Assembly (NCBI GenBank): GCA_963833425.1
Contig: CAWHXP010000013.1
Span: forward strand, 32,001-96,000
DNA: 64,000 bases
Direction of reading: 5' to 3'
Source: an uncultured Methanosarcinaceae archaeon
GTDB lineage: Archaea; Halobacteriota; Methanosarcinia; Methanosarcinales; Methanosarcinaceae
This document shows positions 29,125-63,740 of this stretch, piece after piece. A program made the position numbers and the translations under genes. The notes beneath the pieces are model-generated. The model did no database searches. It was not told the origin of the DNA and saw only the letters and a list, made by a program, of their open reading frames with translations. How positions within the stretch are numbered: the stretch's first letter is position 1; every line of letters begins with the position of its first letter.

Positions 29125-29300
29125 TTTTTTAAATTAATTATACAAAAAATAGTTTCTTGATAAAAATTAATTTTCCCTAAAATATTTTAATCTAGAACAA
29201 TAATTTGATATTAATGATTTTTTTATCTTTCCCAGAAATCTTCACAAATTTAACATTAGCTTTTTCCTAAAAAAGCAGTATACACTAACCCTATATTTAA
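29125..29300 (-). promoter_or_regulatory. Conserved upstream module, copy 1 (faces pfpI)
   Basis: TTTAAATTAATTATACAAAAAATAGTTTCTTGATAAAAATT...ATATTTTAA...ACAATAATTTGATATTAATGA shared with five other loci. Confidence 0.6.
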
Positions 29301-29708
29301 TTCTAAATTTTCGGTGGCCTTATCCTTCTAGGACTTGGAACAAGTTCATTGATTTTGAGTAATTGATTAAAACAATAATCAATTAGAAGATAATGACTTT
29401 TTTAACTTTAATGAACCCCATGAGTCAATGGATATGCTAACAAAGTTATTTTCTAGTTTCATTGACACAAGTTTTTGTGTCAAAAAATATACTAATGAAA
29501 ACAAGAGAAAAGAAGTTTTGGAAGCATAAAAATTAACTTTTCTTCCTATATTTTTGCAGATCTTCTGTAAGCTGCCTTACTCCGTTTTAGATGTGCGTTC
29601 TTCATAATCTGTATCCCTTTTTATTAAGATTTTAGTTTATTTTAACGTTGATGCTTTACATTTTGCATTTCAACATACAATTTATTATAAGATCACTATC
29701 ATACAAGA

Positions 29709-30227
29709 ATGTGTGATAAGATAAAGCAATTTTTTTTAGAGAATAGATTTATGGACAAAAAATTTAAAGTAAACGAGAAAGAAAGTTTAACGAAATACAT
29801 CACCGATGAGGAACGCAGGCAGTTGCTTACAGCTTTACATTCACGCCTTTTCTGGGTAGGTCAATACATCCCACATAGTATAGAAGTAGAAGGAAAAAAC
29901 TGTCACTTGCATGATTATGTATGGGAATTAATCCAGAAAGAAACGCTTACTCAAACTGAAAAGTCCACTATAGATAAATGTATTGAGATGATTTCGACAA
30001 AGGAAAAGGAAGATGAGAGAAATCTGGAAGAACGATCCCTTACACAGGAAGAAGCAAAAGCTTTATATCACGAAACTGCAGGCCTACTGCGTGCGATAAT
30101 GGACCTAAAAGAAATAAAGGATGGAACTCTTAGGGAAAATACAAAACATTTTCAAGAACAGTTTGGTGACCAAAGAGTCAAAGATGCCAAGCTCTGGCTT
30201 GAATTTATCAAAAAAGTATCTAAGTAA
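29709..30227 (+). CDS. Conserved methanogen hypothetical protein (DUF5788-like)
   Basis: LHSRLFWVG..IP and GLLRAIMDL motifs; start may be the ATG at 29751. Confidence 0.75.
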   Translation: MCDKIKQFFLENRFMDKKFKVNEKESLTKYITDEERRQLLTALHSRLFWVGQYIPHSIEVEGKNCHLHDYVWELIQKETLTQTEKSTIDKCIEMISTKEKEDERNLEERSLTQEEAKALYHETAGLLRAIMDLKEIKDGTLRENTKHFQEQFGDQRVKDAKLWLEFIKKVSK

Positions 30228-30279
30228 AGTGCTGGAAATGAGTAATAACAGGTTTTGATTTTACGCTTTACCTGACTAT

Positions 30280-31210
30280 ATTTTGTCAAAAATTCTAAAG
30301 CTGTTTACTCATATGGACAACTGGCCCCTATTACAGCACTGATACAACAGGATTTACGAGTTCCTATGCAGGTCATGATTATTCCTGCAGAACAGAAAAT
30401 CTACGAAGGAGCTTTTGAAAATTTTAAGATCATTCGACACAGTAAAAAATATTACGGCCCTTAAAAATTGTCCAATTTTTAAGGACTAATGAACTTTATT
30501 TACCAGATCAGATACCTTTTAATTGTTATTAAAAGAAAAAAACGTTTTTAATATCATTTTTCTTAATTTAAAAGAATATTCGCCTTTAATTTATTCCTTA
30601 GACTCTTATTTATTTTTTGACACTAAACCCAGTATAAGTAAAAAACGTGATCTAATCAATAATTATAAATAAATAAAGTTTGGCAATAAACCAAGCTATT
30701 ATTAAGTGCAGTTACCAATTTTAAAGCTTAATTTTATTTATTAGCTTAAAATTTGAATTATTGGAGTGTATTTTTCTTTTAAGAATTCCAATTATTTATA
30801 TTTCCTAAAATAAATATATTGGGATATTAGTTTATGCACTAATTATGAAAGATCCTAAAAAATATGATATTAAAGATAGAAAATTAATCAGAAAGGTTGT
30901 CTAAAAACTCTAACCAATTATACAACTGTGACAAAATATTCTACTATAAGGTCGAATTGTACCGGAATTACGGAATAATTTCCTATCCAAATTTAAAGTA
31001 AAAATTTGTGATCACTCAATTGTATTATTGAGTTGAGTTGTGAGACAGCTTGCAGAAAATAGATCATGAAATCAAACATCAAACGCTAGATTAGACAATC
31101 AGATAGGATAAGAAAATTTCAATGTATTTAATGAATAAGAGACATGATTCAGAAAAATCCATTTTCTAATTAGAGATGAAATAAGATCAGACTCAATCCT
31201 ACCTGTAAAA
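30280..31210 (+). mobile_element. Old fragment of the 19153-type IS5, split by a ~600-bp insertion
   Basis: 30280-30452 aligns to ~19545-19720 and 31056-31210 aligns to ~19742-19897. Confidence 0.7.
30894..31051. repeat. MITE-like element, ~158 bp
   Basis: Imperfect TIRs AGGTTGTCTAAAAACTC / GAGTTGTGAGACAGCTT. Confidence 0.55.
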
Positions 31211-31300
31211 TAATCAGTAGCCAACAGTTGAATAAAATAAACTCACCTAAATTTGCTCATTAATCTTAGTAACAGTAACTAATGATATTGTTTTCCACAG

Positions 31301-31407
31301 GTTGGATATCTGAGTTTGAATAATTCCTTTATATCAGAGCAATGATTCACCCAGTTGTTTCTAAATGGATTATGACCCAAAATATTTATTTCAGTCGGAT
31401 ACCCAAC
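31301..31407. repeat. MITE-like element, ~107 bp
   Basis: Imperfect TIRs GTTGGATATCTGAGTTTGAATAA / TTATTTCAGTCGGATACCCAAC. Confidence 0.45.
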
Positions 31408-31576
31408 AGCAATTTATAGGATATTAGACTGAAATAAATTCATTTTTATAAATTTTTTAAGTTTTAATTTTCGCTATGTAGCCCACAATTTGAAGAACTA
31501 AAATTAACTTTTAGTTGGCTCAGGGTTTCGGGTATCGTTTTACTTATATTTCAAAGTATCCTATTAGATCTATTAC

Positions 31577-32875: not shown

Positions 32876-32895
32876 ATGATCATGTCCATCATGTA

Positions 32896-33970
32896 GTCAA
32901 CTACCTGCCATTCAAGTAACAAATATGGATCTCCCTGATATATTATCCGTATAAGTGGTAAACAGACACACATGAAACTCTAAGATATACCGATAGTCTC
33001 ATGTTCTGTGTTCGATGTTTCTAGCGACATCAACTCGGCATTGAATTCAAAATTGCAAGTTTACACAGAAATTCAATCCATTTATTTTTAGAGATATGTT
33101 TACACCTGCAACAAGCCTTGGGAGTATAATTCTGGATCCACACATTCTGTTATTATACCAGAATTTTTTGTTTTTTACTCAACGAATTATTGTAATTGGT
33201 AAAAAGCCCAGTTATTATGGAGATATTTTTGTTTCTTTCTTAGATTGTTGTTAGTTATATTCCTTATTCAGGTTAAGTCTTCTAAATCTATTACAGAAAC
33301 ACCGTTTTCAACTCAAATTTTACGATTGCTTTGGAAATAAAATGATTAACGTTTGTCATAAGATGTTTCTCTCTTCCAGCTAAATGCTTTATCATCCTCT
33401 TCGCTTACAAATTCCCTTAGATTGTAATCTTGCTCTCATATTTTTGTATACGTTTCTTTTATTTTTCATTTCTCCACCGGCAAAAAACTTGCATTTCTTG
33501 TCAGTATTGGAAGCTACAGCTAAGAAATTTATGCATAGATCTATACTCATGAAAGTCGAAACTTCTTTTGTTCTCTTGTTTGGAGTTCTTGTGATACAGT
33601 AAGATGGAAATAATAATAATCATCTTTATGCTTTACGACTATAGAAGCTTCAAATTTTCAAGGAATTTTGAAGAATTGCTTTGCATCAGGATAATTACAG
33701 ATTTTATAGATTTTCCTACCATGACTAAAGGTAGTTATACAAACCAACTAGAAACTTAGTTCATACCATTTGCATATTTTTCATCTTCTCTACTAAATCA
33801 AAATCAACATCTATTATCCTCAATGGTATTATTTTAATAGATTTCATGATAAGTACATTCACATAAAAATAAATGTAACTTTCGTTTGAATTTTGTACTA
33901 AAACAGGGATTGAGAAAATCACGCATTCCTACCATATCTAAAGAATTAGAAATTTTGCTTCGATTCTTGA
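32896..33970 (-). mobile_element. tnpB: IS200/IS605-family (TnpB-only) element, tnpB pseudogene at ~32943-33847
   Basis: Minus strand reads, across frameshifts: SIDLCINFLAVAS (RuvC-I), NHFISKAIV, LEDL (RuvC-II), NWAFYQL, VDP, C..C zinc-finger remnants, RNIEHR. Right end GGTAGTTGAC at 32896. Confidence 0.85.
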
Positions 33971-33984
33971 ACTAAAGCTTATAA

Positions 33985-34074
33985 GAGAGAATTTCGATAA
34001 ATCCCTAAATTTCGTAATATTCTCATATGGCATATCAATATCCGTGAAAATCAGAAGTTTACCGAAATTCTCTA
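33985..34074. repeat. MITE family A copy
   Basis: AGAGAATTTCGATAAA...TTTACCGAAATTCTCTA. Confidence 0.8.
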
Positions 34075-34527
34075 TATTAGATAATTATTATCAATTTAAG
34101 TTCCCTCTGTTTTGTATGGGTAATTTGATCCATTTCCAAAATATGAGAACATCACTTTTAGAAATTCGAGATATCTGTTGTCTAAAAATACATTCAATCT
34201 CTGTGTTTATATTTTTGATCGGCTACTTTTAACTAAATATTTATTTTTACCACACAAAACAGCGATGAGCCATAATTATTAAAGATATATAGGATTTATG
34301 CACTTGAGGTACAAAATCAGATATAACCGTCACTGTTGTTTAAATTTAAACTTTTGGATCTTGAGAGGTTCAATGCTATTGATTTTTCAGTTCAACTAGT
34401 AAGTCTTAGATCTAAAAATGTAAATATCAGTAAGTGTGCATTCGCAGGATATTTGCATCAAAAAATTGACTGGCAAATTAATGACAGACGTTGTTGTTAA
34501 TCGGCAGGTGAATATATTTTGGCTTGA

Positions 34528-39235: not shown

Positions 39236-39289
39236 ACAAGACAAATTATTGTAGAGAAAAACTTTCGAGTTCTTTTCTTATGGAGCTTT

Positions 39290-47420: not shown

Positions 47421-47499
47421 TTTTTATAAAGACCTTTCAATGGCATAAGCCATAGCTTTGACTATATAATTTGATGAGGTGAAAAATAATTGAAGGTTA

Positions 47500-48486
47500 A
47501 GATCTGTAGAAACCCTCAATTTGATGCAAATTAGTTCTATAATTTTTTTGTTTATGTTGTATACTATTAATTTAATTTTAATCTCTTTTGTTTGATAACG
47601 GAATTTCCTTACCCATAGTGTTTCTCCTAATTTTCTTTTAACTACGAAAAATATTGTCTCCACAATATTTCTTTGATTATATTTAATTCTGTCAAAGACC
47701 AGGTTCAACTGTTTTCTATATTTACCTCTTATTTTCTTTCTTTTTCTCTCTTACAGGTATAATTGAATCTGCTTTGATTTCTTCTCTAATTATAGAATGT
47801 ATTTTTTCTGAATCGTATCGTTTATCCATTACATAACAATCAGACTTTCTAATCTTATTTGATTGTCTTATCAGAGCATTTGCATGTTTGATTTCATGGT
47901 CTGTTTTTTGACTAATTTCCCATCCCAATATTATCTTTTTACTTGTGCCCACTGACATTGAAATTCTCAGGAAGCTTCCCTGTTCTTCTGGAATAATAAT
48001 AACTTGCATATGAACTCGTAAATCCTGTTGCATCAATCGCTGCAACAGAGACATTTACTCCATATGAGTAAAACAGCTTTAGAATCCTTGACAGAAGAGG
48101 GTTAAACAGAGAGGAAGGAATCCTAGTTACAAACTTTTGTAGGGTAGTGAAATATGGAATCTTTTCAAGAGCAAGTTTTTCTTTTATATCGCTCATAAGG
48201 TCAATAAGTTCTACAAAATCTCGATAGTCTGTACTAATATACTCTTTCAATAAAACCAGTGAAAGAAGCTGATGCTGAGTATAAACGTGTTTTGAATACT
48301 TGCAGGAATAAAGCTTCAGTCTCGAAGACTGAACAGTTTCAAGACTAGTATCAACAAATTTAATGTACTTTTAAACTTCAATATTGAATGTTCCTTCGTT
48401 TTTAGCGAAAAAAATAAGAAGAATATTATAACTGAATAGTTATAATACTGGTGTAAAAGTTCAATTTAGAACATTTCTGCAGAGCC
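47500..48486 (-). mobile_element. IS5-family element, second copy of the 19153-20151 element
   Basis: Near-identical sequence; mutated TIRs; TSD GAAGGTTA/AAAGGTTA; 11-bp and 2-bp deletions. Confidence 0.92.
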
Positions 48487-48798: not shown

Positions 48799-50724
48799 AT
48801 GAACAAGGTTAACAAGGAGACGGAAGACAATTCTGAATATCCTAAAAAATTTGAAAATCTAGAAATGAAGGAGATAAAGTCTATAAGTGAAAAACTTTCC
48901 GAAATGCACTGTGATATCAAAACAGTGATGGAATATTCCAACAGGCTTCGTTTCGAAACTGCTCTTGAAAGTTCAAGGCAGGAATATTCACATGCTCTTC
49001 TAAATCATCTTTTTGAAGATATAGAGACTGGACTTGAACGAAATATGGCGAAAAGATGTCCTGAAAAAGGAAATTGCATTTCTAAGTTCACGGCTATTCT
49101 ACAGCACAATGGAAGGATTCTAAAAAATATTAAAATAGATGAGGCCCTTATTTCGGACAACAGAAATAAGTTGGATGAACTGAAATGCAGAGCTCCTTAT
49201 AGGAAATGTGAGCGGTGCTTTTCCGAAGTTTCGAATCTCTTCATAAAACAAATAAACCTCATGCATTCCATAAAGAGTTATAAAATTGATCAAGGACAGA
49301 AGCCCGATATTTCAGCCCTAGAAACCAACGTGGTTATGAACGAAATCCTTGAGCCGGTCTCAAATAAACAGCGCTTGAAAATTTTAAAAGCTGTCGCCAT
49401 CGAACCGAAAAGCTTCTCCGCTTTTTCCAAACTTACGGGTCTTATAGCAGGGAACTTACACTTTCATCTCCAGAAACTCATGGACTGCGAGCTAATTCTG
49501 CAACAACATGATAGAGGAAATTATATGATCACTGAAAAAGGGCTCAAAATCCTGCAGAGTTTAAACGAGATATATTTTTCACTCCAATATTTCCCACAGC
49601 AAATATATCATTCTAATTTGTTTGAGGAATCGAAAAAGGAAAAATTAACTAGCGAATCGGAGATAGTAACACTTACTGAATCTCTAAAAAAAATGGCTCT
49701 GACCCGTGGGGCCGCCAAAGTAGGCATTGCAACGACAAAAAATCTTTTAGGCGGCCCTCCTTCCACCGACCTGACCTATGTGTTGCCAGAAGCAAAATCT
49801 GCTATCTGTTTTGCCCTAGCTTTTGATCAGAACCTTATAGACCCTTATTTCAGAAAACTGGATTACGAATCCCTTGAAATGAATAAGGTATTGACCACTA
49901 TCCTTGCCGATGGAATAGCTCTTGAAATTGCAAATTTTTTGCAGCAATCTGGATTCAAAGCTGCCCCTCAGGCTGCAAATTTCGTTTACCGGAAGGGTAC
50001 AGAAAATTGGCTGTTGGATATGCATCCTCCTATTTCCCACAGGTATCTGGCAGCACGCTCTGGGATAGGACATCTAGGATATTCAGGAAATATTATTACA
50101 AAGGAATATGGATCCGCGATTGTCTTGGCCACAGTCGTAACGGACGCTGAACTTATTCCAACAGACCCCTTGTCAGAAGAAGAAAACTATTGTGACGAAT
50201 GCAAGCTTTGCCTTTCAGTATGTTTATCTGGATACGTAGACCCTGTTGAGAAAATTTCTGTAACCCTGGGTGGAAAGGAGTTTAGTTATGGGAAGCGAAG
50301 AAGCAATAGTCGCGGTTTACTTGTATGTATGGGACTTACAGGTCTGAGTGCCTCAGGAAAATGGTCCACCTGGTCTCCTGGGCGCTTTAAAATTCCCGAA
50401 AAAGATGAAGAGTTCATTTCTGCAATAGCTACTGCCACACAAGCGTATCAAGAAAGACCGAAGTTAAAAGGCGGATTTTTTGTACCCATAATGTCAGGAT
50501 GCATGATGGAATATCCCTGTTCTAGCTGCCAGTTAGTCTGTCACCCTGACAAAGAAGTTCGAACAGCAAGATACAAGATGCTAATAGAAAGCGGAGTGGT
50601 CATACAAGAACTTGATGGAACTCGTAGAGTAGTATCCCCAGAAGAAGCAAAAGAGTATCTCAACTCCATACCTCTAGAAAAAAGAAAACTATATGAATCT
50701 ATTTCTGCGGGGGAATCGGTCTAA
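48799..50724 (+). CDS. Fusion of an Msr/ArsR-type winged-helix regulator with a QueG/reductive-dehalogenase-like Fe-S (cobalamin) domain
   Basis: aa ~1-263: CPEKGNC, CERC, LEPVSNKQRL..L...TGL..GNL.FHLQKL...Y.ITEKG. aa ~290-641: GAAKVGIA, SHRYLAARSGIG..G.SG, G..IVL..VVTDAEL, CDECKLCLSVC, CSSCQLVC. Confidence 0.88.
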   Translation: MNKVNKETEDNSEYPKKFENLEMKEIKSISEKLSEMHCDIKTVMEYSNRLRFETALESSRQEYSHALLNHLFEDIETGLERNMAKRCPEKGNCISKFTAILQHNGRILKNIKIDEALISDNRNKLDELKCRAPYRKCERCFSEVSNLFIKQINLMHSIKSYKIDQGQKPDISALETNVVMNEILEPVSNKQRLKILKAVAIEPKSFSAFSKLTGLIAGNLHFHLQKLMDCELILQQHDRGNYMITEKGLKILQSLNEIYFSLQYFPQQIYHSNLFEESKKEKLTSESEIVTLTESLKKMALTRGAAKVGIATTKNLLGGPPSTDLTYVLPEAKSAICFALAFDQNLIDPYFRKLDYESLEMNKVLTTILADGIALEIANFLQQSGFKAAPQAANFVYRKGTENWLLDMHPPISHRYLAARSGIGHLGYSGNIITKEYGSAIVLATVVTDAELIPTDPLSEEENYCDECKLCLSVCLSGYVDPVEKISVTLGGKEFSYGKRRSNSRGLLVCMGLTGLSASGKWSTWSPGRFKIPEKDEEFISAIATATQAYQERPKLKGGFFVPIMSGCMMEYPCSSCQLVCHPDKEVRTARYKMLIESGVVIQELDGTRRVVSPEEAKEYLNSIPLEKRKLYESISAGESV

Positions 50725-51163: not shown

Positions 51164-51165
51164 TA

Positions 51166-51278: not shown

Positions 51279-52110
51279 TACTTCTTCTTAATATTTAAAA
51301 AAATATTGAATGGAGTAAAGTGATGCTGATGAATTCTAAAGATAAAATAAGAGGATACGTCATACCCAAATGCCTTCAGAATGGATTGTGAAGTTACCTT
51401 CCAATTCAGTGAGACACACATATGGATGGATATGTATATTTGGCACTTAAAAGTGGTGAAGACGTCTAAAGATTTAGTAGTCACCTTGAAAGATATAAAT
51501 TCATTTTTACTTTCCCATATTGGGCTTTTCCGAAAGCATTGAATGAGTTAGAAAAATGTGGGATGATAAAGCTACAAGACAACGTGGTAAAAGTCCCACT
51601 TTAACTGTGTTATATGACGTTTGTATGAAGGATGTCCAACTTTAAATTTTGATAAAAGAGATGGAATAACAGTGAATAGGTAATGATGTGGCGCTTGATC
51701 TGTTCTATAAAACTAATTTCCTAATTTTTATTTCAATTCGCAATCTATAGAATTAATATTTATTAGATTTCGTCCATGTGTTTGAATCCGGAGCAAATAC
51801 CCTAAGCAGCTCTTTAAGGGCTTTCATGAACCTTATACCCATATTCTCCTTACCGATCATTTTAGTTATATTCCCCAGTAATGTCTTGTGCCCCATCATT
51901 ATAGTCATATTCTCCTGACTCGTAATACAAATAAAATTTTCAAAAATTTTATATGAAGAGTGAACTACTCCTCTCTAACCTTCGATTCTCCAGTTCTTCT
52001 AGGACAGATTTGCTAACCCTAAGGATATATTCTTTCATACTCAACTCAAGAGTTTATCAAAGGATGGCAAATATTCATAATCTATCTAAAGAAATTTTTA
52101 CTTATTGTTT

Positions 52111-52659
52111 TCATGTCCTCATTTTCATTCCCCCAATAACTTCTCCAATTCCACCGAAAATAAGGAAAAATCCAAATACCCATGGCAGCAGCAGGATTCC
52201 CGCTAGGGAGTTAGTTAATAGAAGTAAGCCCAGGATTATGTTAAGCAAGCCACAAATTCCCATGCCCATTCCTCCCCCTTTAAGCGACAAAGTAAATCTC
52301 ACAGCACCGTTGATAAGAACTAAAATTCCTATTAAGAGAATGAAAAGTTTAAGAACTATGAAAGGACTGAGGATGGGATACATAATTATAACAACTCCTG
52401 CAATAATGCTCAAGATACCTGAAATCGGGTTCCACATCCGGTTCTTCGTAAAAATCAGTGATTCTATAACAGAAATAATTCCTTGAGCTAGCCAAAAAAT
52501 GGCTAAAATTTGTATTAGCAGAATGGTGGTTGCTATAGGCTCGTATAAGAGAAATATGCCTATAAGAATAGCAATAATCCCTTCCAAAAAAACCGACCAC
52601 CAAGGTGGCTGCACTACTTCAAATTTTATCATTGACTCAGTATAAATTGGTTGTTCCAT
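52111..52659 (-). CDS. HdeD/DUF308-family membrane protein
   Basis: WWSVFLEGIIAILIGIFLL..P repeat, six TM segments. Confidence 0.85.
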   Translation of the reverse strand: MEQPIYTESMIKFEVVQPPWWSVFLEGIIAILIGIFLLYEPIATTILLIQILAIFWLAQGIISVIESLIFTKNRMWNPISGILSIIAGVVIIMYPILSPFIVLKLFILLIGILVLINGAVRFTLSLKGGGMGMGICGLLNIILGLLLLTNSLAGILLLPWVFGFFLIFGGIGEVIGGMKMRT

Positions 52660-52769
52660 ATAATATCTCTCCCTAATTATTTTGACGCGTTATGCAGACA
52701 TTCCCCCTACCAAGATACGATACGTAGGCAAGATACACCAAAGCGTTACCTGTCCAGGACCAAACACTT

Positions 52770-52905
52770 CAGAATCAGATGTCTGTTGCTGTGTCGATCA
52801 CAGAGACAGGGTTGCTGCCTTTCATTCGTTACATTACTTTCGTTCCATAGGGGAGACTGCAACTCCCCCAGTCCAGCTTTCAGCATTTCCCATGGCTATA
52901 CCTTA
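52770..52905 (-). pseudogene. YVTN beta-propeller repeat relic
   Basis: GGVAVSP-GTKV-VTN...VSVIDTATD across frameshifts. Confidence 0.6.
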
Positions 52906-53007
52906 TTTTTGATAACTATTCAAACTACCAAAAATTAGTTGGTTGGTGTCTATTCTATCACATCAACAAAATTCGATGAACAATAATATTTACTAGTTTG
53001 TTCTTTA

Positions 53008-53150
53008 TTTTAAATTAATTATAAAAAAAATAGTTTCTGGATAAAAATTACTTCTAGATAAAATATTTTAACACTGAACAACTATTTATTATTAATTATA
53101 GTTTTAATTATTTCTAGATAACATCACAAGACTATCAATAATTAACATAC
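53008..53150 (-). promoter_or_regulatory. Conserved upstream module, copy 2 (faces the YVTN relic and hdeD-like gene)
   Basis: TTTAAATTAATTATAAAAAAAATAGTTTCTGGATAAAAATTAC...ATATTTTAA. Confidence 0.6.
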
Positions 53151-53418
53151 TTTACTAGACAACAACCATTATCATAAAATATTGCTATTTTTCAAATTTT
53201 ACATTTAATTTCGATAGGTTTCTTTAATAGTGGAACTAAAGTTCTGTGAAATCTGATTGGCTCTTTTACCATTTTCTTTCACTGCAAAAAAATCCGGGTG
53301 CTGAACCAATGGTTATGTTAAAAAAGTATGTTCTATTGTTTCATTAATGCATAGTTTTTTTGCGATAAAACCTATGTATTAGTAAAACAGAGACAAAAAC
53401 TGTATTCAGAAGTTATTT

Positions 53419-53515
53419 TAAAACATTATTACTATTAAAGCAATGTTCAATTTTAAAATATTTAGGCGAACATAAGTTTTATTCAGAAACTATTTTTTTG
53501 ATAAATACTTTAAAA
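53419..53515 (+). promoter_or_regulatory. Conserved upstream module, copy 3 (faces ycaC-like gene)
   Basis: TTAAAATAT...TTTTATTCAGAAACTATTTTTTTGATAA, the inverted copy of the module. Confidence 0.6.
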
Positions 53516-53619
53516 TAACTAAAAAGCAAAGTAAATTTTGTAGTTCATTGAAATTTTATTATTCAGACAACATAAATGAAACTAGAGAGATTATCTTACC
53601 TAAACAGAAAGTCTAAGCC

Positions 53620-54263
53620 ATGTCCAAAGCGAATCCAATTCCGGGAAAAACGCTTCTGAATCCGACCAACCATACGTGATCATGATCGATAATCAGTCGC
53701 AGATGGCCTTCGCTACCAAGTCGATTGATATCGTATATCTCCGTAACAACGCTGGACTTGTCGCCAGTGCGGCAAAAGAATTCAAAGTCTCAACCATTCT
53801 GACTACCATTGCAGAAAAAACATTCAGTGGCCCTATTTCCGGTGAAATCAAAGAAGTTTTTCCTCACGAAGAAATTATTGATCGTTCAATTATCAATGCA
53901 TGGGAAGACAGCCGTATCACTGATAAGATCAATAAATTTGGCAAAGACAAAATCGTTCTTTGCGGTTTGTGGACGAGCGTTTGTATTGCGGATCCAGCGC
54001 TGTCGGCAATTGATCAAGGCTTTGAAGTCTATTTCATCGCGGACGCCTGCGGCGATATTTCGACTGAAGCACATGATCGCGCTTGTGAACGTATGATTCA
54101 AGCTGGATGCCGTCCCATGACTAGCGTGCAATATCTTCTTGAATTGCAACGCGACTGGGCGCGTGTCGAGACTTACAACGAAACATGTGCCAACTCTATT
54201 AAGTTCGGTGGCGCTTATGGCCTTGGCCTCATTTATGCCCAAACAATGATCGTTGGCCATTAA
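53620..54263 (+). pseudogene. YcaC-like isochorismatase-family hydrolase with a 1-bp frameshift near codon 19
   Basis: MSKANPIPGKTLLNPTNHT / IMIDNQ, INAWED, GLWTSVC, ELQRDWAR; more GC-rich than its flanks. Confidence 0.85.
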
Positions 54264-54289
54264 AGTGCGAAAGGAACTTAACTCATAAA

Positions 54290-54319
54290 GGGCTGTATTT
54301 TGCAGCCCCTTCTTTTTTT
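54290..54319 (+). terminator. GC hairpin plus T tract
   Basis: GGGCTG-TATTTTG-CAGCCC then CTTCTTTTTTT. Confidence 0.6.
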
Positions 54320-54602
54320 GCAGAATTGTGGGGGCGCTATGACAGTTAAAACAGTTCTCTTTTATTTAAAAACTTACAGGAATTATTTTATTCAATTTTC
54401 ATAAGGATTCATACAAAGTTTTTTTTGTAATTAAAGCTATGTATTTTTGGTTTGAAATTTAGATAAAAAGTTTCTGCTGTAGTCGTTTATTTTTTGTTAG
54501 TTTTTCTAATTTTGAGTACATCATACTATTATGCATAGATTTTATTAAAAAATATTTCATATTAAATAGCCGAAAAGTTGCTATATCCACATTCATGAAT
54601 AA

Positions 54603-54668
54603 GATGGATTCTTATCAACTGTTATTGCTCTCGGCATTTGATTGTGATTTGAACTCAATGTTTCTTAG
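54603..54668 (-). mobile_element. Short IS6 transposase fragment
   Basis: Aligns to ~56235-56300. Confidence 0.55.
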
Positions 54669-54798
54669 GGAAAATGAAGAGGTTTCCACTTAATTCGACG
54701 AGGATATGTAACTTGAAGAGGATATATAATTAGACTAATCTACTTTGGGTCAAAAGCTATTTACAAAGCTGAAAAATTTCGATTAAGGGTGAGGATTT

Positions 54799-55580
54799 AT
54801 GAGCAAGAAAATACTTATTACTGGTGCTGGGCATGGTTTAGGCAAAGGAGTAGCATTGGGTTTGGCCAAGCAGGTCACAAAGTTATTGCGACTGCACAAA
54901 TCTGGCCACAGGTTTGGGATTTAAGATGTGAAACCAAAGAACAGGCTATCGAGCTTGATGTAATTAAGCTTGATATTCGAGATGACATAGATAGACGGCA
55001 TGCTCTGACCTATGATATTGACATTTTGGTCAACAATGCAGGAATTGGAAAATCGATCCCATGGCCGAGATACCTATTTATAGAGTACGTGAATCCTTCG
55101 AGACAAATGTTTTTAGTCGCCTAGAGCTAATGCAGGACTTTGTGCATAAGATGATCAAACAAGGACGTGAGAAAGTTGTCTGGATTTCTTCGGAGGACGG
55201 TATTTTGACGGATGCTTTTGCAGGAACTTATTGCGCTACTAAGCATGCTATCGAAGCTATCGCCTGGGCGATGAAAGAAGAGCTTGATCCTATGGAATTC
55301 AGGTCACAACGATTAACCCGGGAGCCTATCGGACTGGTTTTAACGACATAGGATTAGATGATGGCATCAATGGTACGATCCTGAAAAAAATTTAATCAAA
55401 CCCCGAGACCCCAGTGAAATGGCTGAAGAGTTATCCAAACAGCGTGATCCACAAGAGATGATCGATGTTATTGTGGAAGTAATCAAAGCTGACAACCATA
55501 TGTACCGCACTGTAAAACCAGATGAAGATGTGCATGAGCTGAAAAAGTTTCAGGCTAATGTATGGAAGGCTGGGGTATAA
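54799..55580 (+). pseudogene. Short-chain dehydrogenase/reductase pseudogene
   Basis: MSKKILITGAGHGLG, ILVNNAG, YCATK; at least three frameshifts and a deletion. Confidence 0.88.
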
Positions 55581-55597
55581 GGAAATATTAGTTTTGG

Positions 55598-55749
55598 AGG
55601 TACTGTTGCAAAAAATCAAAATATTTTACAAAAATCGTTGAAAACTTTCACAATAAGGTGATTTAGTGATCAAACTGGGGTTTAAACAGCATTTAAAGGA
55701 AATTAAAATGTCCTCAAAGTACAGAAAAATTCTTTTTGCAATGGAACCC
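55598..55749. mobile_element. IS6-derived MITE (152 bp)
   Basis: GGTACTGTTGCAAAAA...TTTTTGCAATGGAACCC; reverse homolog of 25662-25812. Confidence 0.8.
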
Positions 55750-55862
55750 TAGTACTAATTGTCGTCGTTTTACCCCAAAATTGAATCGTAGTCAGTCTGT
55801 GCATGATTAGGTCTTTCCGCTGTTCCGTCTCACTCCCCTACATAATAAAAAGTCTTCCAAAA

Positions 55863-56719
55863 GGGTTCCGTTGCAAAAAATTCAAAAAAAGATGTGACTC
55901 CATAAGTAATGAACAAAAGTCAAAAGTATCCGAGGAAAATGTATCAATATTATAAAACTAAACCAAATAATTGATTAATGTATTTGACTTCATTAAGAAC
56001 AGAGTAATTTAGATCGATTACTTGTCCTTTTTTGATCATATTTATAGCTTCAATTCCTTTTAAAGTCTTATTAGCAGATCGAAAAGACTGAAATCCTAAC
56101 ATTGGATTAACGATTCGCTTCATAGATCTGTGATCTTGTTCTATAATGTTATTCAAATACTTGATTTGTCTAATGCCTACGTTTTTAGGTAGTATTTTAT
56201 CATTTTTCAGTCCATCTATAGCAAGTGGATAAGCTGGATTCTTATCAACGGTTATTACTCCTGAAATTTGATTATGATTAGAACTCAAAACTTTCTTAAA
56301 GAATCTCTTCGCTACTTTTCTATTTCGTTTTGAACTTAACATGAAATCATTTGTATCTCCATTTGAGTCAACTGCTCGGTAAAAATATTTCCATTTACTT
56401 TGTACTTTGATATAGGTTTCATCAACTCTCCACGAATCGTTTGTTGGTCTTAAATGTTTTCTGATCTTCTTTTCTATTTCAGGGGAATATCGATGTACCT
56501 ATCTCATAATTTTCGTATGGTAGACTTTTATTCCCCTTTCTGCCATCATTTTCTTTAATTTCTATAGCTTAATGCATATTTTAGGTACCATCTTACATTC
56601 AATAGGATAATTTCTCCGTTATAATGCTTCCATTTAAAGGAATTAGATAGCATGTCACTACCTTTGGTTTTCTTTTTATTCTATTGTATCATTAGAAAGG
56701 ATTTTTTGCAACGGAACCC
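55863..56719 (-). mobile_element. IS6-family element, transposase pseudogene at 55950-56653
   Basis: Perfect TIR GGGTTCCGTTGCAAAAAAT; FKWKHY, SWRVDETY, YRAVD, NNIIEQDHR; frameshift and internal TAG. Confidence 0.93.
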
Positions 56720-56909
56720 TTTTTATTCTGTAATTCCGTTCTTGCATTTGACCCAAAACGCTTTATCAGCAAAAATCTCTATCGATCTATAGATAGTCTT
56801 TTGAATTTAAAATTTTTAAACCCAAATTTATTGGGATTAAAGGTTTACACAATGAAACATTTTTTTTAATTGAAAATATCAGCGATCCATAGATCTGAAA
56901 GCTGTAATT

Positions 56910-57569
56910 TCACAGCCCTACTCTGGTTTTGAAATTTTCAAGGCCGATTTCTTCGATATATTTTCCTAGCCTCTTTTTTGTACCTGAGCTTTTGTAGAAA
57001 TTTAATATTTTATCTACTACCTCAAGGACTTCCTCTTCAGATAACTCCTTTGCGACAACTTCAGCAATTCTTGGCGCTGCAGCTGCAGAGCCTCCAACCA
57101 TCAAGGTATATCCTTTGGCAGTGCCCATTATCCCTATGTCCTTGATAGCAGGTTCAGCGCAGGAGTTTGGACAGCCGCATACAGCCATTTTTAGTTTGGA
57201 AGGCATAGGCATTCCATGATACTTCTCATCGAGTTTTAGGCCCAAACCAACTGCATCCTGCTTCCCCTGCTTGCAGAAAGTCGTCCCTGGACAAAGTTTT
57301 ATGCTCCTAACACAAAGCCCTATTGCTGCTCCAGGATGCATACCAAGATCTGTCCACACACTATCGAGATCCTCTTTTTTCAGACCAACGATTGCTATTC
57401 TTTGAGCAGAAGTAATCTTGAGGGCTGAAGCTCCGTACCTTTCGGCGACATCGCCGATTTTCCTTAGGGTTGCAGGGTCTACAAGTCCTCCGGAGATCTG
57501 GGGAGCGATGGCGTATGTTTCACGGTCTCGCTGAACTATTGCGCCTTTTTCTGGTAAGTTATCTTTCAT
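56910..57569 (-). CDS. Small siroheme/4Fe-4S sulfite/nitrite-reductase-like protein (alSir-like)
   Basis: MKDNLPEKGAIVQRD with GGAGG RBS; TSAQR, CPGTTFC, GCPNSC; 219 aa. Confidence 0.88.
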   Translation of the reverse strand: MKDNLPEKGAIVQRDRETYAIAPQISGGLVDPATLRKIGDVAERYGASALKITSAQRIAIVGLKKEDLDSVWTDLGMHPGAAIGLCVRSIKLCPGTTFCKQGKQDAVGLGLKLDEKYHGMPMPSKLKMAVCGCPNSCAEPAIKDIGIMGTAKGYTLMVGGSAAAAPRIAEVVAKELSEEEVLEVVDKILNFYKSSGTKKRLGKYIEEIGLENFKTRVGL

Positions 57570-57918
57570 ATTTTTCCTTCCTCCAAATTTATATTTTGAG
57601 ATTTTACTGTATAATGAAACTACTTGATAGTTCTTGTGTAGCGAAAGCAAAATATCTCAGTTGTGAACTGATTATAAGTCTGTTTTAACTATACCTAATG
57701 CATCGATTTCAAAATATTTTTTTTGTGGGAACGTCATTGATCAATGGCCAGAGTTATAAGTTTAGGTTTATGGATATACTCCGGAATAGACGCATTCGAA
57801 AGCTTTTACTATATTTACTTTAACAAATATTATAACTCAAATTATTTTTAAGTATGCTTTTGATACCAGTATATTCGAGATATCGATTTATATATTAAAC
57901 AGTTTCTATGTCTATACT

Positions 57919-58275
57919 ATGAAAGACTGCACAGTCTATAAGACAATGAATATAATTGGGAAAAAATGGACTATTCACATACTTCTCGAATTGCACAAAG
58001 GAGAAATGAAGAAGAAACGCTTTAATGAACTAAAAAGAAAGCTCGTTTACATAACCCCAAAAATACTTTCTGAAAGGCTGACAGAACTAGAAGATGAAGG
58101 CTTGATTGCAAATAAGGTTGACGACTCAACAGAGCTCCCAAAATCCGAGTATTACTTAACTGAAAGTGGTATGGATTTTGTGAAGATAATACAAGCAATT
58201 AAATGCTGGGGACTGAAGTGGAAATTCCAGGATGAAGAGTGTGAGAAGGCTATTTGTATGTATTGTGACCACTGA
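57919..58275 (+). CDS. HxlR-family winged-helix regulator
   Basis: C.V...IGKKW, RFNEL, ITPKILSERL.ELE, EY.LT..G; C-terminal C...C..C. Confidence 0.9.
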   Translation: MKDCTVYKTMNIIGKKWTIHILLELHKGEMKKKRFNELKRKLVYITPKILSERLTELEDEGLIANKVDDSTELPKSEYYLTESGMDFVKIIQAIKCWGLKWKFQDEECEKAICMYCDH

Positions 58276-59169
58276 GCGAGCGGAGTGCAAATACAAAACT
58301 AAGCAAAGAGGTATATAGAATTTATTGTAATAGAAGATTGAAAGTTATCGTTTTTAACTCTGTATTATGGCTTGCAATTCTTAAACATTATAGAGATTAC
58401 ATAGTTGGAATGAAAGATCTATAGCATTAAGTCTTCAACTATCTAAATTGTGCATTTGAATTACAAAGTCAAATGTGCTTTATTTTAATCAGCAAGTGAA
58501 TAAGTCTTAATTAAGGGACCCTACATTTATTTACCATCGGTTAACAAATTTTATGTACATCTTCGAACCAATATACGGATTTCACGATTTGGATTATGAA
58601 TACCGGATTTTTAAAAACGAGATTCATATCCAGTTACATTAGTATAAACAAGTCTCATCTGCACCGTATCTAAAGGGCTATAGGCTTTCAGCCTTTGTAT
58701 TTTACTTTTAATGTCTCATTGGTGTCATTGATCGTCAACTAATTTATGATTGATTACACGACATTTTCTAAAAACAGTTTCGGTTTAGAGTATATGCTCG
58801 TAACTTTCCTGAAATGTTCGGTACTATACGGAATTTGAAGATCTTAGTTTCTTAAATTCAAATATTGGTTTAGGTATAGACAAGCATTTCGAATTTGAAA
58901 CTATCCTATTAATACATTGAAACACATAATTGTGTATACAAGAGTGCAGTAGTCGGTGTTATACACATCAACACAAGCTGTTCATAGGCAAGAAATAAGT
59001 GATAGAATTTAAAAGGACATAAATTTTTGAAAAAAAATATGCTACCAAAAAGGTGCTGTATTCGAAGCAGCAACAATCAAATTTAAGGCTATAGCCCTTG
59101 GTCGTTAAGTTTGGAAATATGAAAATCATTTCTGTTCAGGTCTTTTTTTACATGCATAGTTTTTATGTG

Positions 59170-59300
59170 GATAAACTACTTTTATTGTGCCAAGTTTTTG
59201 AGTTCTGCAAGTTAATTTCAATCGCTTTTTGTATGCTTTATTGTTTCATCCGACTGGTCTAATGTCACTAAAGAGATTCTTTATTGAACCAAGAATCTGA
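59170..59300 (-). pseudogene. TPR repeat relic
   Basis: SWFNK..SL..L..SDETIKAY / KAIEIN.QNSKTWHNK. Confidence 0.55.
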
Positions 59301-59611
59301 ATCTTGCATCATGTCAGTTATACTCACCAGGATTTAAAACGCCAACATATTGATTCCTAATACTTTTATAAAGATATGCCCTCTTCTTGCTTTATCGTAT
59401 GTAGCTTTTCAATTTTCAGCCTCTTGATGTTTATTCAGATATCAATGCTGAAAAATAACCACAACGTGATGTAGCTAATTTTAATTATGGGCAGACAGAA
59501 TCAATAAAAGGTAGGTAAGATTATAATCTTCAATTGTCAAACCCTTACCCTCTACGGGTGATCTGTGGGATAACTGATTTAACTTCAACTAAATTTGTTT
59601 GATTTGGTCTT

Positions 59612-59968
59612 CTAATAATTTTTGACCTTTGAGTGTAATATTCTATTTTCTACTATTATCAGACTAACTTCTGCATCCAGTACTTTGTTTATTGCTTCTT
59701 CACGTTTTGTTTCTGCTTTCCTTATTAGGTCTCCAATACTTTGGATTTGTGAATCTAATTTATTGGTGATTGTATCTAATTTTTTAGATTGGGTTTGTAT
59801 AATCTTAGATTCTGCTAATTTCCTCAGGTTGTTAGCAGCATTTATTAAATCCTCGAAATACTTGACTTTTTCCATTTCTATATTGAGCTCTGCTTTTATT
59901 TTTTCAAACTCTTCTTCGTCAATCTTTCTGTTATGTTCTTGTTTTTCGATATCATGTTCTGTATTCAT
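59612..59968 (-). CDS. Hypothetical coiled-coil protein
   Basis: 118-aa ORF with AGAGG RBS, E/K-rich heptads. Confidence 0.6.
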   Translation of the reverse strand: MNTEHDIEKQEHNRKIDEEEFEKIKAELNIEMEKVKYFEDLINAANNLRKLAESKIIQTQSKKLDTITNKLDSQIQSIGDLIRKAETKREEAINKVLDAEVSLIIVENRILHSKVKNY

Positions 59969-60694
59969 AATATAACCTCTTTGTTTTATCTATTGTTTTA
60001 TCTACGCCTTTCGTACACACTGAAATATTTTTAAATTATTAATTTTAGTTTTTGGTGAATTTCACTGCTTTTTGTTGCTTTATAGTTCTCTGTGTGTTTC
60101 TTGTGTAGTCTGAGCTGGCTAATGCCATATCCGACATGCTTTACTACTATACGTGAACTTTCCTTTCAATTTTGAAATAAAATTTATTTGTATCCAGTTA
60201 GTATGTAAATGCCAAAAAGCATTATTTTTATACCAATAGCGATGTTCTCAATATTGTCCCATAAAACTTGTTCAATCCTTCAAGAGTCTTGCCCTTAATA
60301 CAATTTGATCATTAGGAAGAGAGTAAGTTTACCTGGTTTAACAGTTTTACTAACTTCTGTGATAAAATTACCACAAGTAAGACTACCGAAATGATTGGTG
60401 CTTTTTATTCGGTCAATTTTTTTTTCAATATATCATGCATTCAATACTTTTTGATACAATTGATTTAGTAAATTAATCTGCAGATAAATTAATGATTAAT
60501 TTTCCAATAACCGATCTAGATTTATGGCGGAAGGATATTATATTGATATTAAAATCTTATCTTTGACAAATTATTATTTGGATTATACAGGACCAAAGTC
60601 TTTCAGACACTTATTTATTCAAATATCTACCAATTATTCCTCAACTTTTTGACCGAGCAGTTTTCGTTAAAATGCAAAATAATCCCCTTAGTTA

Positions 60695-60870
60695 TTTTTA
60701 ATTAATTGTGTGAAAAATATATTCGGAATAAAAATTACTTTTGCACAAAATATTTTAATCTTAAACAATAATTTGATATTAATGATGTTATATTATTTCA
60801 AAAGAAGTTATAAACTTAGTATTATAGTTTTTTTCTAAGAAGTAATATATATTGACTTCATATCAAATTT
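60695..60870 (-). promoter_or_regulatory. Conserved upstream module, copy 4 (faces coding debris at ~60.2-60.4 kb)
   Basis: TTTTAATTAATTGTGTGAAAAATATATTCGGAATAAAAATTAC...ATATTTTAATCTTAAACAATAATTTGATATTAATGA. Confidence 0.6.
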
Positions 60871-60903
60871 TGGTCAAACCCTTAAGTCGTCTTTGAGTCG
60901 TTA

Positions 60904-60985
60904 TAGAGGATTTCGAGAAATCCCTCCATTTCGTACTATGATATAAATGACATATAAATTGTACATGAAAATAAGATATTATCGG
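60904..60985. repeat. MITE family A copy
   Basis: TAGAGGATTTCGAGAAATCCC...TATAAATGACATATAAAT shared with the 42121 copy. Confidence 0.7.
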
Positions 60986-61469
60986 CAGCTTGATTACTTT
61001 TCTAGAAAAATAAAAAATCATATCTCCAATGCGGTCGATATCTCAAAAAATTTGGAAATGAGTGTTCACCATGCTAGGTGCCTCTTCAACTCATGGAGTT
61101 TGATATAAAATATATATATTACCAATGTCAACATTTCATTACAATTTTTCCACTATTAACCCTAACTCACAAGTTTAAGAGTAAAGAGAAATGCAAAGTC
61201 ATTTAAATTTAAACAAACTATTTTTTTACCCAGCTCAATTTGCTTTTCTGTTTACAAGTCCATACTAAATATTGTTTTATTTTCATGATTGTAGTGAGAA
61301 TGCCCACTGCTTTAGATATGGTACCCTACCTCATAGCCCTAATATACGATATAACCAATCTATCCACATAGATGTTATATTCTATGCTATAAATTATCTG
61401 ATTTAATTGCAGATAGATAGGTTGAATTTATTGCGGTTAAAACATACATAAATTTACCGATAATTTTAG

Positions 61470-62319
61470 GGAAAAATTTCTTTCCTATATTTTTCAATTC
61501 CAGGCTTGTCAAAAGTTCTCCTAATCTGTCTCCATTAAGACACTCTTTACTGTAATAATCAATTGTTTTTTAGAATTGAAAAAAGATTCTCCTCGTCCAC
61601 AAGTTCAATAAATTTTATTCCATGCCTTGGCTTACGTCCCATACTACCCCCAACAAAAATCGTATATCCGATTTTTTTCCGTTCTCAATGCATTTTTTCG
61701 ACAAGCTGCAATACAGGCTCCGCAAAGAACGCATTTTTCCCTGACTATCCGTATTTTTTCTTCCTCGATTGTTATTGCTCCCATTTTACAAGCTTGTTCA
61801 CAGCTTCCGCAACCAATACAATTCTCTTCGAGAATTTCTGGTTTTTTCATACCCATGATTCCAAAATCATCATCCTGGGGTTTTACACACGCAGAAGGAC
61901 AGCCTGTTATTGCAATTTTAAATTTTTGAGGGACAGCTTCACCGAAATATTTCTCATTTATGAAGTAAGCCAGTCACTAACAGTCAATTAACCTATATTT
62001 ACAGACATTGTTCCCATGACAAGCAACAATTGCCCTCACTTTTTACCCGGAAGAACTTCCAAAAATCTATTGCATTTCGAGCTCATAAATTGCTTTTTCC
62101 GTATCTTCAAGTTTTTTAAACGGAACTCCAATCTGTTGCCTTGAAGTTAAATGAACGTAACAAGAACCGTATTTCTCTGCAGCATCCGCATTAGTCCTTA
62201 AATTTTTGGCGAACACCATTCTGCCCACAACTTTAAGCCTCATTGAAAACATCTTTTCTTATCTCTGAGATAGAAAACCTTTGTTTTTGAGTGAAGATTA
62301 ATCAATTTTTATAGGCCAT
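61470..62319 (-). pseudogene. Dsr-like/AsrC-like sulfite reductase with 2x4Fe-4S ferredoxin domain, pseudogene
   Basis: HLTSRQ, VACHGNNVC, KFKIAITGCPSAC, CIGCGSCEQAC, CVLCGACIAAC, GGSMGR; stops, frameshifts and a deletion. Confidence 0.88.
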
Positions 62320-62707
62320 ATGAGATCACTTAACTGCAAAAGTATTATAATTAATTTCTATAAAAATTAGGATTTATGTAACTTATCTAATAGATCCAAA
62401 AACAAGGTGCATAATTTTCCGTAAAATCCGCTCTACATCACATTTTTTTCTGATTACCATTCTATTATTATCTTGTTACCTGTGATCCAAGATGGAGCCT
62501 TAATTTAATCTAAAAGCAGTATTTTAGTTTTTCATTATTCGATGATTTCAATAAAACCTATTTATTCATTTCAAGAAACAAGCAATTAGTAATGGGAAAA
62601 TAATCAAAAAAAAGATTAAATGGTACGAGCAGATTTGACAGAAAACAATGCGCATGCCAACTTGAGCATTGTACTGGGAATTCTGTAAAATTTTATCTCA
62701 AAAATAT

Positions 62708-62763
62708 TAGAAAATTTAGATAAACTACATGCTCAAGAGCATTGAGTTTATCTAAATTCTCTA
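62708..62763. repeat. Minimal 56-bp palindromic member of MITE family A
   Basis: TAGAAAATTTAGATAAACT-ACATGCTC-AA-GAGCATTG-AGTTTATCTAAATTCTCTA. Confidence 0.75.
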
Positions 62764-63053
62764 TAATTAGTATAGTATTCTTTCATTCTGTTAGTGCTGA
62801 TATTACCACTAACAACGAATAGTAAGTATATTTTTAAATTTGTTTTGCCAGAGCCATCAATTCCTAAATTATAACTTTTGACAGAAGTAGGTGTGCAGAA
62901 AATTAACCTTTAATGGATGGATTTAATTGAATACTATATTTATCCAAAAAAATAGCCTTCAGAGGCTACATGAATAGTTACGGAATTTGCTATTTGAGAT
63001 AATTTATACAGAATCCAAATTCCATTATCATTTGATATGTTGAATTTATTTTT

Positions 63054-63278
63054 TTATTTGAGCATTGTCTGAACTTTTTTAATATCCGCGATAGCTTCTT
63101 TTTTTAGTTCGATCATCTTTTCCATTTTACCTATTTTCATTTCTAAAATTTTTATGAATTTATCCATTCTCATTACTGCAACTTTTTTCTTCTGTTCTAT
63201 AGTCAGAAGTTCCCACATCTCAACCATAGCGGTCTCCATTATAGACCCCTGTCCCATCATGGAATGTTCTTCGCACAT
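63054..63278 (-). CDS. Small Met-rich coiled-coil hypothetical protein
   Basis: 74-aa ORF, GGAG RBS, TATA-like element upstream. Confidence 0.75.
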   Translation of the reverse strand: MCEEHSMMGQGSIMETAMVEMWELLTIEQKKKVAVMRMDKFIKILEMKIGKMEKMIELKKEAIADIKKVQTMLK

Positions 63279-63436
63279 GTTTCAATATCTCCTTGATTGA
63301 TAATATTTTTTTGAATTTACACTTCAAGAATAGACCAAAATATTAGTATATTTTAATCTCCGGTTTCAACAAATTATTTATAGAGTATATATAAAGCAAT
63401 TTATTGCAACCAGATGTTTATTATTTTCCCATATTA

Positions 63437-63560
63437 TTTTTAATTAATGATATGAAAAAAAGTTTCTGAATAAAATTTACTTTCCAATAACATATTTTAA
63501 AACTAAAAAATCATTTCATATTAATAATGTTTTTATCATATTCTGACATTTTTAAAATTT
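63437..63560 (-). promoter_or_regulatory. Conserved upstream module, copy 5 (faces the 74-aa gene)
   Basis: TTTTAATTAATGATATGAAAAAAAGTTTCTGAATAAAATTTAC...ATATTTTAA. Confidence 0.6.
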
Positions 63561-63589
63561 AATATTTAATCTAGGGTCCAATGTTCGTT

Positions 63590-63740
63590 CTGTTTTAGGA
63601 AAAAGTTGATGTTAAGTTCTGAAGATTTTAAAACATAATTAAAAAATCATTTTTAAATATTTAGTTGTTTTTTGATTTGAAAAATCTTATGTGGGATTAC
63701 TTTTCATTCAGAAACTATTTTTGGTATAATTAATTTGATA
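63590..63740 (+). promoter_or_regulatory. Conserved upstream module, copy 6 (faces the ORF at 63830)
   Basis: TTCATTCAGAAACTATTTTTGGTATAATTAATTT, inverted copy with upstream homology to copy 1. Confidence 0.6.

Follow-up and report, generated by a model that had tools for sequence, protein, structure and literature searches.

A stretch of 64,000 nucleotides (nt) from an uncultured Methanosarcinaceae archaeon (contig CAWHXP010000013.1; hereafter the window, with positions counted from its first nucleotide) raises the question of what an AT-rich element is doing there in six copies. An initial annotation had proposed a promoter cassette that depends on an activator or an alternative TATA-binding protein, was spread by duplication, and might define a general-stress regulon. 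We consider it probable, from comparison of the copies and of their flanks, that the element acts as a promoter cassette peculiar to this archaeal lineage, in which a TATA-type core, preceded by a transcription factor B recognition element (BRE), is embedded in conserved flanking boxes, and that it defines a regulon, although one in which stress genes do not form the largest class.

A gene-facing repeat of the Methanosarcina lineage

The six copies are real and lie far above chance. A repeat search of the window identifies four direct 105-nt copies at 29127, 53008, 60695, and 63437, and inverted matches tie these to 53419–53525 and 63668–63751; all six lie where the initial annotation placed them, and the gene-facing core it quoted is found in the sequence. 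A hidden Markov model (HMM) built from the six copies scores them at 58.7–64.9 bits and the next match in the window at 5.7 bits. The element count in 64 kb is exactly six, with five copies between 53.0 and 63.8 kb. Similarity no better than that of shuffled AT-rich controls had been named beforehand as a possible refutation; the best match to the same model in 50 second-order-Markov shuffled windows (3.2 Mb) reaches 9.0 bits. HMMs built with one copy left out recover the omitted copy at 29.1–52.5 bits, versus at most 10.0 bits in shuffles and at most 7.6 bits for the next real match.

Relatives were collected by one scan of GTDB representative genomes with a strict pattern drawn from four of the six window copies, which yielded 36 loci. 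The genome of the window is absent from these, and the best DNA identities of the window to the loci are 84–92%. Twenty-six loci belong to Methanosarcina/Methanosarcinaceae and come from six genomes: three Danish metagenome-assembled genomes (MAGs), a fen MAG, a bog MAG, and Methanosarcina sp. Ant1. It had been proposed to scan this and other genomes with an HMM of the six copies; that model was applied, and other genomes were reached through the pattern scan. Full-length HMM matches are present in all 26 Methanosarcina-lineage loci and in none of the 10 loci from unrelated taxa, which form an internal chance control. A larger HMM of 35 copies gives 51 matches in the window and loci, of which 41 score at least 35 bits after one duplicate and one overlapping locus are set aside; omission of two tandem-internal units leaves the 39 non-redundant copies used for tallies of downstream genes. 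The pattern is strict enough that diverged copies in other or model Methanosarcina species would escape it. No published description of the element was found in the literature searched.

Within the window, copy 1 (29116–29235, minus strand; 76.8 bits under the HMM of 35 copies, 52.5 bits in the leave-one-out test) faces left to pfpI, and copy 2 (52994–53121, minus strand; 75.0 bits, 50.4 bits left out) faces left to an hdeD-like gene. Copy 3 (53400–53531, plus strand; 74.9 bits) carries an AGAAAC run at 53485–53490 and a T-rich box at 53491–53498, with a predicted transcription start near 53521. Copy 4 (60681–60798, minus strand; 71.0 bits) has a degenerate core, and copy 5 (63427–63542, minus strand; 69.4 bits) faces the gene for a 74-amino-acid protein. 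Copy 6 (63590–63749, plus strand; 56.2 bits, 29.1 bits left out) consists of an HMM match at 63645–63749 together with a shared upstream block from ~63590. Copies 2 and 3 (gap 278 nt) and copies 5 and 6 (gap ~102 nt) form the two back-to-back divergent pairs that had been described.

Homology among the copies is confined to a discrete block of ~105–115 nt with a sharp gene-facing end. In an all-against-all comparison extending over ±700 nt, 77–99% of 1190 ordered pairs are homologous in register from −100 to −1, versus 25% at +1 to +20 and 16% at −139. The content of guanine plus cytosine (GC) is 17.7%. The best-conserved part is the gene-facing 45 nt, which comprises the AGAAAC run, the T-rich box, and a ATAATTAAT-type box up to the edge; AGAAAC is found in 37 of the 41 copies, and TATTTTT after it in 38. 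Further upstream are a near-palindrome (AAAA-N-ATTTTA) ~63 nt before the predicted start and, at about −90, another ATAATTAAT-type box, with AAAA.ATTTTA present in 21 of 41 copies, ATAATTAAT in 26, and AATTAAT in 29. Twelve of the 41 copies fall outside the search pattern and keep the same blocks at 80–99%; thus, the conservation is not a seeding artefact, and such near-invariant blocks imply selection. The upstream half of the element resembles a degenerate tandem copy of the core. Extra tandem partial units occur in six loci, including one (L022) in which five units of ~50 nt precede a single gene.

Identity is 85.9% (n = 15) when two copies from different genomes precede one and the same class of gene; for copies ahead of unlike classes it is lower, at 73.9% (n = 109) if both lie in one genome and 74.2% (n = 435) if they do not. 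The family is therefore older than the split of these species and has been vertically inherited, without concerted evolution. Two separate copies are carried by 9 of the 25 distinct loci, a sign that the element spread by duplicating locally; the initial proposal of spread by duplication is upheld.

The element is directional with respect to genes. A downstream gene counted as supported when Pfam gave a match to it or when two or more loci carry it. By this measure, 29 of the 39 copies lead to a supported co-oriented gene starting 55–480 nt away, eight to only an unsupported or distant co-oriented open reading frame (ORF), and two to no downstream gene; in no case does a copy run toward the 3' end of a supported gene. 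All five copies that follow a co-directional Pfam-supported gene point onward to the next gene. Random orientation across the genome had been named as an outcome that would count against a promoter; the orientation found here is strict, in a sample that is not genome-wide.

Among the 29 supported targets, 16 are small secreted low-complexity proteins, one of them with a cytochrome-b5 domain, and eight are of stress type, as single genes or as pairs: two for Hsp20 (one of them preceded by a relic of the 74-amino-acid gene), and one each for 1-Cys peroxiredoxin, PfpI, a DUF308/HdeD-like protein, an isochorismatase/YcaC-like protein, PRC with CsbD, and a YNCE-type propeller with DUF1269 after it. 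An Hsp20 locus also has a second Hsp20, ferritin, rubrerythrin, and Fe/Mn superoxide dismutase. The remaining targets are the 74-amino-acid family (three), a pro-kumamolisin, and a zinc-ribbon protein followed by DUF5661. The stress theme of the initial annotation is thus extended to Hsp20, peroxiredoxin, PRC plus CsbD, and propeller/DUF1269 genes, but the largest class (16 of 29) is secreted and not of stress type. We infer from this gene content that stress may act as the trigger.

Past the element edge, the sequence splits into three leader subfamilies. Leader a precedes the secreted proteins and continues into their common signal peptide; leader b precedes PfpI, peroxiredoxin, the 74-amino-acid gene relic followed by Hsp20, and PRC/CsbD; and leader c precedes the 74-amino-acid family. 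The secreted family is encoded in 11 loci by ORFs located 139–284 nt past the element, and its members (59–168 amino acids) have a common leader and an N-terminal signal-like peptide of the MLKQ..KK.LAILL type, followed by diverging low-complexity tails rich in Gly/Tyr, Gly/Trp, His, or Lys. No Pfam or NCBIfam family was assigned to it; only chance-level matches under the cut-off were obtained. Leader a also contains, ~25–45 nt ahead of start codons (e.g., positions 4817–4978 of locus L014), a second stretch like the gene-facing box, which is duplicated in locus L028. This stretch may be a proximal second promoter, such as is described in Methanolobus psychrophilus for its Hsp20 genes (PMC5378194).

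A candidate promoter cassette and its alternatives

In the promoter-cassette reading, the AGAAAC run would be the purine-rich, BRE-like part and the T-rich box the TATA-like part, as the initial annotation had suggested in proposing a BRE with a non-canonical TATA box. This assignment is strengthened by the 12 unseeded copies, in which the same two words are also the best conserved, although the T-rich box has a competitor, another TATA-like stretch that follows 9 nt later. For the msvR promoter of Methanosarcina acetivorans, the mapped distance from TATA box to transcription start is 27 nt (PMC3729527); counted from the centre of the T-rich box, this places the predicted start exactly at the end of family-wide homology. 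The near-invariant AT-rich stretch would then extend to the transcription start, and the start would be the point where homology ends. For the ycaC-like gene downstream of copy 3, a 5' untranslated region (UTR) of ~100 nt is predicted. Long 5' UTRs are reported for Methanosarcinales (PMC5378194), and the UTR lengths predicted here fit.

The additional conserved boxes suggest a dedicated regulator, for which the near-palindrome and the distal ATAATTAAT-type box would be the binding sites. Involvement of an accessory TATA-binding protein (TBP) is possible by analogy with M. acetivorans, for which one primary and two accessory TBPs are described (PMC5112694); no gene for TBP or transcription factor B (TFB) is found in the window or loci. 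In each genome, the cassette would bring tens of genes under common control, including stress-protection genes, the 74-amino-acid family, and the secreted proteins, the last of which would constitute a large, fast-diverging family. Its multiplication would have occurred by local duplication together with the leader and the coding start of the signal peptide, or by recombination within the leader, and it would since then have been vertically inherited under purifying selection.

Several points weigh against this reading. The loci were drawn via a single strict pattern, so that the gene list is biased and does not span whole genomes; 10 of the 39 copies have no well-supported downstream gene; signal peptides were called by eye, without a predictor; and some apparent frameshifts are possible MAG assembly errors. 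Three of the six window targets look damaged or absent (the start of pfpI, the frame of the ycaC-like gene, and the sequence beyond copy 4). The T-rich box is itself not a canonical archaeal TATA sequence, the second TATA-like stretch could be the real TATA box, and at such low GC content TATA-like and palindromic words arise easily. In addition, no regulator gene recurs in the ±5-kb flanks of the copies.

The alternative that survives best, which we nevertheless regard as unlikely, is that the element is an ordinary strong promoter that was passively copied with secreted-protein genes and occasionally recombined elsewhere, with no dedicated regulator or common trigger. The prominence of one secreted family with a common leader and signal peptide, the local clustering of copies (two in each of nine loci), and the failure to find a regulator gene nearby are all compatible with passive copying. 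However, paralogues are old and are not homogenized within genomes, yet the 45-nt core and the two upstream boxes are retained at 80–99%, which is more constraint than recognition by TBP and TFB alone requires. Furthermore, the same cassette is joined to unrelated leaders before Hsp20, peroxiredoxin, PfpI, PRC/CsbD, and HdeD-like genes.

Promoter-bearing interspersed repeats, including miniature inverted-repeat transposable elements (MITEs), are short, non-coding, and present in many copies with sharp boundaries, and they may supply the promoter of a neighbouring gene. A non-autonomous MITE-like element with an outward-facing promoter, inserting upstream of genes, would account for the sharp boundaries on both sides and the many copies per genome, and the back-to-back pairs could be read as inverted ends. 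This explanation is improbable given that neither of the signals expected of such an element exceeds controls, in agreement with the initial annotation: for target-site duplications (TSDs), the shared flank word is 5.56 nt, versus 5.72 nt in mismatched-flank controls, and for terminal inverted repeats (TIRs), the longest inverted word is 7.71 nt, versus 7.28 ± 1.32 nt in shuffles. Moreover, copies within a genome are no more alike than copies between genomes, orthologous copies are conserved, no copy is oriented to the 3' end of a supported gene, and no plasmid or phage match was obtained by blastn. The element thus differs from MITEs in lacking TIRs, TSDs, and a recent burst, and in being vertically inherited; a mobile element was rejected on these tests. 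An empty-site comparison of the hdeD region with a related locus (L029; 84% identical) was also tried: the alignment breaks 170 nt upstream of hdeD, and no insertion boundary is definable.

Also improbable is a transcribed RNA element whose actual promoter would lie further upstream, the element being either a small RNA (sRNA) gene or the opening part of a long, structured 5' leader. In its favour, Methanosarcinales are reported to have numerous sRNAs as well as long 5' UTRs (PMC5378194), and one copy (53400–53531) folds better than its shuffles (z = −2.16). The other five, however, have z-scores of −0.29 to +0.67, and the predicted structures of all six differ. At the gathering score, Rfam 15 identifies only tRNA-Met in the window, and E-value mode adds three hits far under threshold that are attributable to chance. 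The consensus fold of 11 leader-a sequences (alifold) is −3.98 kcal/mol with a covariation term of −0.01, and conservation of the element tracks sequence blocks rather than base pairs. Runs of T are archaeal termination signals, and the sense strand of the element has an average of 1.7 runs of at least five T per copy. A structured RNA was rejected, there being no Rfam family, no consistent fold, and no covariation in leader a.

A terminator, insulator, or chromatin-protein landing pad without promoter function of its own is hardly credible: the sense-strand T-runs, the five copies directly after co-directional genes, and the extremely low GC content would suit it, but the strict orientation to downstream starts, the BRE-like run upstream of the T-rich box, the divergent pairs, and the tandem amplification before one gene in L022 would all be left unexplained.

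What stands of the initial interpretation, therefore, is a directional, gene-facing module that has been duplicated within one lineage; what does not is the primacy of stress genes among its downstream genes.

Genes and other repeats around the window copies

The downstream genes named in the initial annotation are for the most part corroborated. The target of copy 1 is a DJ-1/PfpI gene (28250–28768, minus strand, given as a stop-to-stop frame) with matches to Pfam DJ-1_PfpI (1.2e-51) and NCBIfam TIGR01382 (172 bits; cut-off 139 bits). Its first in-frame start is a GTG at 28711, 13 profile positions inside the domain, and the open frame runs upstream to 28768 without a start codon. A DUF308/HdeD-like membrane protein (52111–52659, minus strand; Pfam DUF308, 2.1e-18) is encoded 345 nt past copy 2, and its match to NCBIfam HdeD is weak. 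The YVTN relic that had been placed beside this gene is backed by a single, weak blastx match (E = 0.009). Copy 3 precedes an isochorismatase/YcaC-like gene (53621–54263, plus strand; ATG at 53621; Pfam Isochorismatase, 9.5e-25), for which YcaC is the best NCBIfam match but is under the cut-off; its frame changes near 53676, by frameshift or assembly error.

Copy 4 has no supported gene within 700 nt downstream, and blastx of the DNA that follows it (59500–60690) against ORFs from the loci gives no match. The 74-amino-acid, coiled-coil-like protein downstream of copy 5 (63054–63278, minus strand) recurs after the element in two other loci (L004 and L015), and relics of the family are present in two more (L008 and L029). 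It has no Pfam or NCBIfam match, and Atlas assigns it only to an archaeal hypothetical family. A further stretch, 61900–63060, has no blastx match to ORFs from the loci. The ORF at 63830 (63830–64000, plus strand) is present as described, 84 nt past copy 6, but is cut by the window end and has no Pfam or NCBIfam match; blastx against ORFs from the loci likewise gives nothing.

The initial annotation had also noted a further block shared by the regions upstream of pfpI and between the divergent copies 2 and 3. The latter block (53295–53400, plus strand) recurs in six other loci with 17–27-bit matches, three of them directly upstream of an element copy, whereas its resemblance to 29415–29520 is weak (~12 bits, E ~0.1, against 29421–29487). 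Both blocks are ~90 nt in length and partly self-complementary.

The region from 52000 to 62300, an island where all copies but one are located, contains many damaged genes, which could reflect either real decay or assembly error. In addition to the frameshifted ycaC-like gene (53621–54263), it contains a short-chain dehydrogenase gene split across 54789–55351, a fragment of an IS240-type transposase gene (55950–56342), and fragments of nitrite/sulfite-reductase and ferredoxin genes (61563–62252); near these fragments are an intact NIR_SIR gene (56910–57650) and a gene for an HxlR-type regulator (57919–58275). About 2 kb from the island, 48799–50724 encodes a 641-amino-acid protein with a winged-helix (ArsR-like) domain and a QueG/reductive-dehalogenase-like Fe-S domain, which may be a redox-sensing regulator. 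Two inverted insertion sequence (IS) copies (19153–20164 and 47424–48486; DDE_Tnp_1 transposase fragments, 93–98% identical) enclose ~27 kb that includes element copy 1, and a third related fragment is located at 30304–30414. A 665-amino-acid ORF without a Pfam match (44165–46162) contains a 15-nt tandem repeat (45108–45227) that encodes DPYGS-type repeats.

A second repeat family (D2) of ~95–110 nt has 20-nt terminal inverted arms, the left arm being of the GAGGATTTCGATAAA type. Copies are found at 8530–8640, 12780–12890, 33978–34088, 28925–29045 (minus strand), and 60897–60948, and also at 1096–1116 (minus strand). Four of the five copies tested fold as long hairpins (z = −5.47, −2.01, −2.06, and −2.96), and the copy at 60897 is without a second arm. 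The copy at 28925–29045 (hairpin of −31.4 kcal/mol, z = −2.96) is situated within the leader between element copy 1 and pfpI. The left-arm motif has 16 matches in the related loci, and a D2 block is also present 3' of the element in two of these (L007 and L008). D2 is found upstream of YjeF_N and TPD genes, as well as at a fixed place in leader b before pfpI or peroxiredoxin, and could be a MITE or a structured leader element.

Relation to known regulons

The element resembles archaeal BRE/TATA core promoters with adjoining regulator boxes, such as the M. acetivorans msvR promoter, in which a purine-rich run is directly upstream of an AT-rich box, regulator boxes adjoin the core, and the TATA centre is ~27 nt before the start (PMC3729527), a spacing that would put the transcription start of the element at its homology edge. 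Unlike msvR-type promoters, the element has ~110 conserved nt rather than a 15–20-nt operator, and it is repeated tens of times, sometimes in tandem. An MsvR operator was rejected, as the motif TTCGN7-9CGAA (PMC3729527) is absent from all 41 copies.

The hsp5 heat-shock promoter of Halobacterium is reported to be directed by general transcription factors (PMC2396416), a possible precedent for assigning individual stress promoters to individual TBP/TFB paralogues.

In the heat-shock regulons of Euryarchaeota (Phr in Pyrococcus and HSR1 in Archaeoglobus), a small protective gene set, including hsp20, has a common sequence overlapping the region from TATA box to start, and by this likeness the element could be controlled by a repressor released on stress. 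Here, by contrast, the gene set is far larger and consists mostly of secreted peptides, and the lineage is one of mesophilic or cold-adapted Methanosarcina. In the general stress regulons of bacteria (SigB, RpoS, and EcfG), one promoter type marks the regulon, as it would here, and their gene content overlaps with the targets of the element: CsbD, HdeD-like, YcaC-like, PfpI/YhbO-type, Hsp20, PRC-barrel, and DUF1269 proteins. Archaea are not known to have sigma factors; thus, the mechanism must differ, and the likeness is one of function rather than of family membership. An alternative-sigma-factor promoter was rejected because the host is archaeal, as indicated by the Methanosarcina/Methanosarcinaceae origin of the related loci and an archaeal-type AdoMet synthetase in the window. 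What makes the element unusual is that it is long, present in many copies, amplified in tandem, and linked to stress genes of bacterial type.

More tentatively, and with considerable doubt, the element might underlie what in archaea would correspond to the general stress response of bacteria. One dedicated regulator or TBP/TFB paralogue would read the ~45-nt core and switch on tens of genes: stress proteins, probably acquired horizontally, together with hypervariable secreted Gly/Tyr/His-rich peptides that would remodel the envelope for dormancy, cold, acid, or oxygen in peat- or cold-adapted Methanosarcina.

Archaeal regulons usually carry short operators, and a repeated module of ~110 nt would provide an unusually clear handle on both the regulator and the stimulus. 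The element also draws attention to a large family of small secreted proteins that lacks annotation and whose production may be coordinated. If the promoter-cassette reading is true, the element would be a portable promoter ready for Methanosarcina genetics, and the stress programme concerned would be that of methanogens important for peatland methane.

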